Sequence record: OL770074.2
Direction: 5' to 3' (one strand)
Length of the DNA stretch: 64,000 nucleotides
Source of the DNA: Escherichia phage vB_EcoM-RPN187
In this document: piece after piece, positions 12,426 to 12,881 of the stretch
Position numbering within the stretch: the stretch's first letter is position 1
Layout of the letters: each line of letters opens with the position of its first letter
Position numbers and translations under genes: made by a program
Notes under the pieces: model-generated
Database searches by the model: none
Seen by the model: the letters and a program-made list of their open reading frames with translations, nothing else
What the model was told of the DNA's origin: nothing

Positions 12426-12881
12426 TTATTTTAGATCTTCGGCCCAATCTAGTTTTAAGGGTTCTTTGTATTCACGGTCGAGAATAACCGGAATAGCTAC
12501 ATCACCACTGAATGATAGTTGGCCAACGTTATATGATAACGTTATATGTGGAGTGTAGTCGTCGAAATCATGAGTAGCACCTAAAGCTCGTGCGTACTGA
12601 TGACGACATCTAAGATATTCGGAATCAAGAACTAAAACCAGTACAGCGCCGTCGTCAGTTTTCCATACCTCAAGGTGTCCTGATTCGGCAACAGAATAAC
12701 TACCACTAGATGTAGTATATGGTATGTTTACACGTGAATAACAAATTGTTGAATGAAGCTTTTCACGTGGTACTGGATTAGGAATTCTTAATTTACGCTG
12801 GAGGTCTTCCAGCGCATCAAGTGTTAATTCCGAAAATTTAGCTGCGACGTAGAGGCCTTGTGAAAAGTCCTCAAATTTCAT
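12426..12881 (-). CDS. 57B: 2H phosphoesterase at the T4 57B position (Acb1-like anti-CBASS nuclease candidate)
   Basis: ORF track 151 aa; two H-x-[ST] motifs (HSTICYS, HITLSY) typical of the 2H superfamily; directly downstream of 57A with TAATG overlap. Confidence 0.7.

Follow-up and report, generated by a model that had tools for sequence, protein, structure and literature searches.

The open reading frame (ORF) on the minus strand at 12426..12881 of the window, by which we mean the whole 64,000-nucleotide stretch of Escherichia phage vB_EcoM-RPN187 (OL770074.2) that was analyzed, is to judge from its sequence almost certainly a Mosigvirus (RB69-type) gene orthologous to T4 57B, which encodes the anti-CBASS nuclease Acb1. 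The ORF comprises 151 codons plus a stop, with the ATG at 12881 and the stop ending at 12426. These coordinates and this length agree exactly with the preliminary description, to which our ORF analysis adds the strand. The same description had called the product an intact, Acb1-type protein, which is upheld by a full-length match to the family and by the retention of the catalytic residues; activity is assigned to it by homology.

Activity-guided fractionation showed T4 57B to be Acb1 (Hobbs et al. 2022, Nature 605:522, PMC9117128), which bears out the equation of the two proteins in the preliminary description. The T4 protein cleaves cyclic oligonucleotides and is needed against CBASS; its H44A and H113A mutants are inactive, and T4 lacking acb1 suffers a more than 300-fold loss on CBASS hosts (PMC9117128). 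In T4, the gene can be dispensed with on hosts free of CBASS but is needed on those that carry it. The structure of the Acb1 protein that Erwinia phage FBB1 encodes was solved in the same work, both in the apo form (7T26) and with 3'3'-cGAMP (7T27), and the functional residues named there are the tetrad H44/T46/H113/T115, the stacking residues Y12, W74, F107, and W147, the residue E141, and a lid formed by residues 145-152 (PMC9117128). Because W74 and F107 are tryptophan and phenylalanine in T4 but phenylalanine and tyrosine in FBB1, these numbers follow the T4 sequence. Residue numbers in the window protein are those of T4 minus one.

A Pfam search with the window protein matches PF23474 ("Anti-CBASS protein Acb1") at 198.1 bits (curated cut-off, 27), with residues 8-149 spanning the entire profile (positions 1-144 of 144). 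At E 0.01 or better, this search returned no family besides Acb1 and, in particular, no LigT-type family; in an NCBIfam search, no model matched the Acb1 ORF or either of the two internal protein (IP)-like proteins encoded downstream of it. BLASTP against T4 57B (NP_049750.1, from NC_000866) gives a gapless alignment with 130 identities in 151 positions (86%; E 4e-103). Among solved structures, the best phmmer match is FBB1 Acb1 (7T26/7T27; E 3.5e-59, residues 9-148). A single-sequence AlphaFold2 prediction of the window protein yielded a poor model (mean pLDDT 40.9, pTM 0.31), and the 2H phosphoesterase fold is implied instead by the 64% identity to 7T26 over 140 residues.

The window protein has five histidines, and its H-x-[ST] motifs number exactly two, both read directly from the sequence. 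The first, H43-S44-T45 (12747..12755, minus strand; T4 H44/T46), lies in the string HSTICYS, and the second, H112-I113-T114 (12540..12548, minus strand; T4 H113/T115), in HITLSYN. Both had been quoted in the preliminary description, as HSTICYS and HITLSY, precisely as they occur here, and T4 57B carries identical strings. We aligned nine sequences from eight genera, with identities to the window protein down to 26%: the window protein itself and the homologues from T4, FBB1, Acinetobacter phage Acj9, an Aeromonas Tulanevirus, Vibrio phage D490, Klebsiella phage KP27, Vibrio phage vB_VmeM-32, and a Krischvirus. Only twelve columns of this alignment are invariant, among them H43, T45, H112, and T114, so that both catalytic histidines and both threonines stand unchanged throughout, and the replacement of a catalytic histidine that would have spoken against the preliminary description is not seen. 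All nine of the functional residues named in T4 are kept in the window protein (Y11, H43, T45, W73, F106, H112, T114, E140, and W146), including the base-stacking aromatics Y11, W73, F106, and W146 (T4 Y12, W74, F107, and W147) and the contact to adenine N6, E140 (T4 E141). The C-terminal lid reads LDWAEDLK, compared with LDWADDLK in T4 (T4 residues 145-152).

With T4 Acb1, then, the window protein shares the HSTICYS and HITLSY strings and the stacking and adenine-reading residues, and the two genes share their place after 57A and a late box in gene 1 (described below). Among the differences, the window protein is one residue shorter at its annotated N terminus, and the overlap between 57A and 57B is 1 nt, as opposed to 4 nt in T4. 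RB69 57B is 99.3% identical to the window gene at the DNA level, with no difference of note. FBB1 Acb1, the structural template for the mechanism considered below, has the same catalytic tetrad (64% identity over 140 residues) but carries phenylalanine in place of W73, tyrosine in place of F106, and a one-residue insertion after G78.

Two homologues in the alignment depart further from this pattern. The KP27 homologue (Klebsiella, Slopekvirus; L006, 1459..2082) is 207 aa long, with a C-terminal extension of ~55 residues past the Acb1 domain, and could represent an Acb1 variant that has been extended or fused; in that phage, a terminator is annotated between 57A and the Acb1 homologue. The most distant homologue, at 26% identity, is that of Vibrio phage vB_VmeM-32 (L007), which is encoded away from 57A and gene 1, flanked by genes for a ribonucleotide reductase and a GIY-YIG homing endonuclease, and has glutamine in place of the adenine-reading glutamate present in the others.

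The window gene and T4 57B are 74% identical in DNA, compared with 86% of residues. By the Nei-Gojobori method, dN is 0.126 and dS ~2.4, the latter saturated, and the resulting dN/dS of ~0.05 indicates strong purifying selection on acb1. Of the 21 positions that differ from T4, most show conservative changes (I/V, D/E, and Y/F) or fall in segments that are variable across genera in the alignment. The residue beside the first catalytic histidine is leucine in the window protein (L42) and in FBB1 and isoleucine in T4, and the single change in the lid is E148 for aspartate in T4.

Owing to these 21 substitutions, the substrate spectrum of the window allele might differ from that of T4 Acb1, being tuned, for instance, between CBASS signals, the cA3 of type III CRISPR systems, and Panoptes decoy nucleotides, although we regard this as very unlikely. 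If it were true, natural Acb1 alleles would record the signaling defenses met by each phage lineage. A related and highly improbable reading is that Mosigvirus Acb1 as such has shifted its substrate range or role, for instance toward type III CRISPR cA3 or the avoidance of decoy-sensing Panoptes systems. Beyond the substitutions themselves, it can draw on the finding that Acb1 degrades cA3 and that type II Panoptes, which restricts Tevenvirinae with a working acb1, selects against this gene; disrupted copies of it occur in the natural variant Bas43 and in laboratory escapers (PMC13577387). Bas43 is not mentioned in PMC11974786 or PMC12657218. Every named ligand-contact and catalytic residue is, however, identical to T4, the substitutions are of the conservative or generally variable kind just described, and the reading is without positive support.

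The labels attached to the gene in databases raise a different alternative. RefSeq and PHROGs (phrog_755) describe the product as "RNA ligase," most GenBank records as "hypothetical protein," and the names "anti-CBASS protein Acb1" and "cyclic phosphodiesterase" appear in only a few records. The 2H fold is common to Acb1 and the LigT enzymes, and the protein could on these grounds be an RNA ligase or a LigT-like RNA 2',3'-cyclic phosphodiesterase acting on RNA ends. The description of phrog_755 and the RefSeq 57B records, one of which reads "putative RNA 2',3'-cyclic phosphodiesterase," speak for such a function. These labels are nevertheless older than the biochemical assignment of 2022 and are held over from reasoning based on the 2H superfamily, Acb1 is the only Pfam family matched at E 0.01 or better, and the substrates demonstrated for T4 57B are cyclic oligonucleotides, the protein being required against CBASS (PMC9117128). 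LigT-type 2H phosphoesterases do resemble Acb1 in their double H-x-T/S motif and in a metal-independent acid-base chemistry that proceeds via a 2',3'-cyclic phosphate (PMC9117128 and established knowledge). Acb1 is unlike them in having a nucleobase-stacking pocket and a lid specialized for cyclic di- and trinucleotides, and the two share no match at the level of Pfam families. We therefore consider it extremely improbable that the window protein is an enzyme of this kind, although a side activity on RNA 2',3'-cyclic ends is conceivable, and retain its assignment to Acb1.

The H-x-[ST] pair taken alone is weak evidence, as two or more such motifs are present in 14% of 20,000 shuffles of the window protein and the pair is thus not significant; the case for Acb1 hence rests on full-length homology. 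That same frequency would suit an ORF arisen by chance, or a pseudogene in decay, in which the motifs are fortuitous, a possibility refuted by the full-length Pfam match, the alignment to T4, the dN/dS of 0.05, and the identical protein found in other phages.

By homology, the window Acb1 would be a small, metal-independent 2H phosphoesterase, whose U-shaped pocket would hold a cyclic di- or trinucleotide. The bases would stack against Y11, W73, F106, and W146, with E140 recognizing the adenine N6 and the C-terminal lid LDWAEDLK folding over the bound molecule. The cyclic oligonucleotide would be strained so that its 3'-5' bond comes under attack by the adenosine 2'-OH, with the tetrad H43/T45/H112/T114 mediating catalysis. 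A 2',3'-cyclic phosphate intermediate would then lead to a linear product such as GpAp, following the chemistry described for Acb1 (PMC9117128). The signal that activates CBASS effectors would thereby be removed (PMC9117128), and an anti-CBASS effect of the window protein in vivo would be expected on the same grounds.

Immediately upstream of acb1 lies a 76-aa ORF (12881..13111, minus strand) that matches Pfam GP57 (E 1e-22) and phrog_1002 (tail fiber chaperone), and is thus the tail-fibre chaperone gene 57A; the preliminary description was correct in placing acb1 downstream of it. The TAA stop of 57A and the ATG of acb1 share one base (TAATG), an overlap from which the two genes are likely to be translationally coupled. 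A T4-type late promoter box, TATAAATA, is located inside gene 1 at 13466..13473 (minus strand), 355 nt upstream of 57A, and T4 has TATAAATA at the same relative position in its own gene 1 (L002, 5006..5013). This box is a probable late promoter for a 57A-acb1 transcript, and the appearance of T4 Acb1 activity at ~15 min into infection (PMC9117128) fits with late transcription. Expression would accordingly involve a late 57A-acb1 transcript starting from TATAAATA, followed by coupled translation of the two genes. A scan for sigma-70 promoters over 11600..15600 found 17 sites, compared with 14.5 ± 3.8 in shuffles; as this is no excess, only sites conserved in T4 were retained.

Just past the acb1 stop, a 12-bp hairpin (12377..12403, minus strand) is predicted to fold with -19.3 kcal/mol (z = -3.3). 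It is not followed by a U tract and hence is not a classical intrinsic terminator, but it represents a possible 3' end or stability element. In the intergenic region between 57B and the first IP-like gene (12377..12411, minus strand), the hairpin overlaps a site made up of TTTACA, a spacer of 17 nt, and TACTAT with an extended TG, which resembles an early promoter serving the gene that follows. At the same place in T4, the hexamers GTTTACA and TACTAT are conserved, and the hairpin stem has a different sequence yet still pairs (TGATGAGGTA / TACCTCATCA).

The two ORFs directly downstream of acb1 both begin with an MKT[YF]KEF signal, as does T4 IPI (MKTFKEF). Signals of this type are capsid-targeting sequences that are removed by the prohead protease. 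The first of these genes (12085..12348, minus strand) encodes 87 aa beginning MKTYKEFIAE and occurs in 35 phage records. The second (11749..12021, minus strand) encodes an Ip9-like protein of 90 aa beginning MKTFKEFINE, matches phrog_7673 (internal head protein; E 7e-54), and occurs in 182 phage records. The IP-like character that the preliminary description gave to these neighbors is therefore well founded. T4 has a single gene, ipI, downstream of 57B where the window has these two. Their distribution is patchy (35 and 182 records, compared with 1,470 for Acb1, which is nearly universal in the group), and many otherwise near-identical Mosigvirus genomes diverge at 11749..12348, with matches starting at query positions 317-341. 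The region 11749..12348 (minus strand) thus resembles a locus with a variable cassette, encoding proteins that are packaged in the virion and possibly act against restriction. Residues 17-90 of the Ip9-like protein, which exclude the MKTFKEF signal, have relatives at 43-50% identity in small siphoviruses with ~43 kb genomes, the Kagunavirus BCH953P1 and Bas70, and this suggests that the body of the internal protein has been exchanged between unrelated phage groups. A third IP-like gene is located at 1224..1505 (minus strand), between denV and e, corresponding to the position of ipII/ipIII in T4; it is read here from an internal ATG, the mechanical ORF call beginning five codons earlier at a TTG.

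The window derives from a Mosigvirus (RB69-type Tevenvirinae), and over the 2.2 kb around acb1 its identity to Escherichia phages AV112 and AV113 amounts to 99.3%. The gene occurs at 95% DNA identity or more in 152 Mosigvirus records, and phage vB_EcoM_WFL6982 (GenBank) encodes exactly the same protein (100% identity). More widely, tblastn finds the Acb1 family in 1,470 phage records, with hosts that include Escherichia, Klebsiella, Acinetobacter, Vibrio, Aeromonas, and others. The gene order of the window is that of T4: denV, e, nudE, the tRNA cluster, trna.2-4, the IP genes, 57B, 57A, 1 (dNMP kinase), 3, 2, 4, 53, and 5. The order 1-57A-57B is also found in Acinetobacter, Aeromonas, Vibrio, and Krischvirus phages. 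The left edge of the window begins with denV, e, and nudE, and a homologue of Acb2 (T4 vs.4) would presumably fall beyond this edge, going by the T4 map. The tRNA cluster (9908..10735, minus strand) holds 10 genes (Arg, Asn, Tyr, Met, Thr, Ser, Pro, Gly, Leu, and Gln), compared with 8 in T4; the T4 tRNA-Ile is not called, Met, Tyr, and Asn occupying its place in the order, and the cluster is not interrupted by a segB homing-endonuclease gene.

This distribution bears on the proposal in the preliminary description that an intact copy beside the IP-like genes indicates pressure from cyclic-nucleotide defense systems. Selection on the gene is borne out, whereas a pressure specific to this genome or this position is not, given that 1,470 phage records carry acb1. 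Because the gene is conserved in T4-like phages at large, its presence says nothing specific about this phage. Instead, acb1 is intact by default across the T4-like phages, which reflects ancient, family-wide selection and nothing particular to vB_EcoM-RPN187, and its adjacency to the IP genes is inherited T4 synteny with no special association. In these respects the window acb1 is already known, being an ordinary orthologue in an ordinary place in a well-sampled genus.

The main import of the assignment lies in annotation, as stale "RNA ligase" and "hypothetical protein" labels are widespread for this gene. Naming the product Acb1 predicts resistance of the phage to CBASS systems that signal via adenine-containing 3'-5' cyclic di- and trinucleotides. 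An intact copy is two-edged, since type II Panoptes restricts phages with a working acb1: conversely to its predicted resistance to CBASS, vB_EcoM-RPN187 may be vulnerable to these systems, which respond to the loss of cA3.
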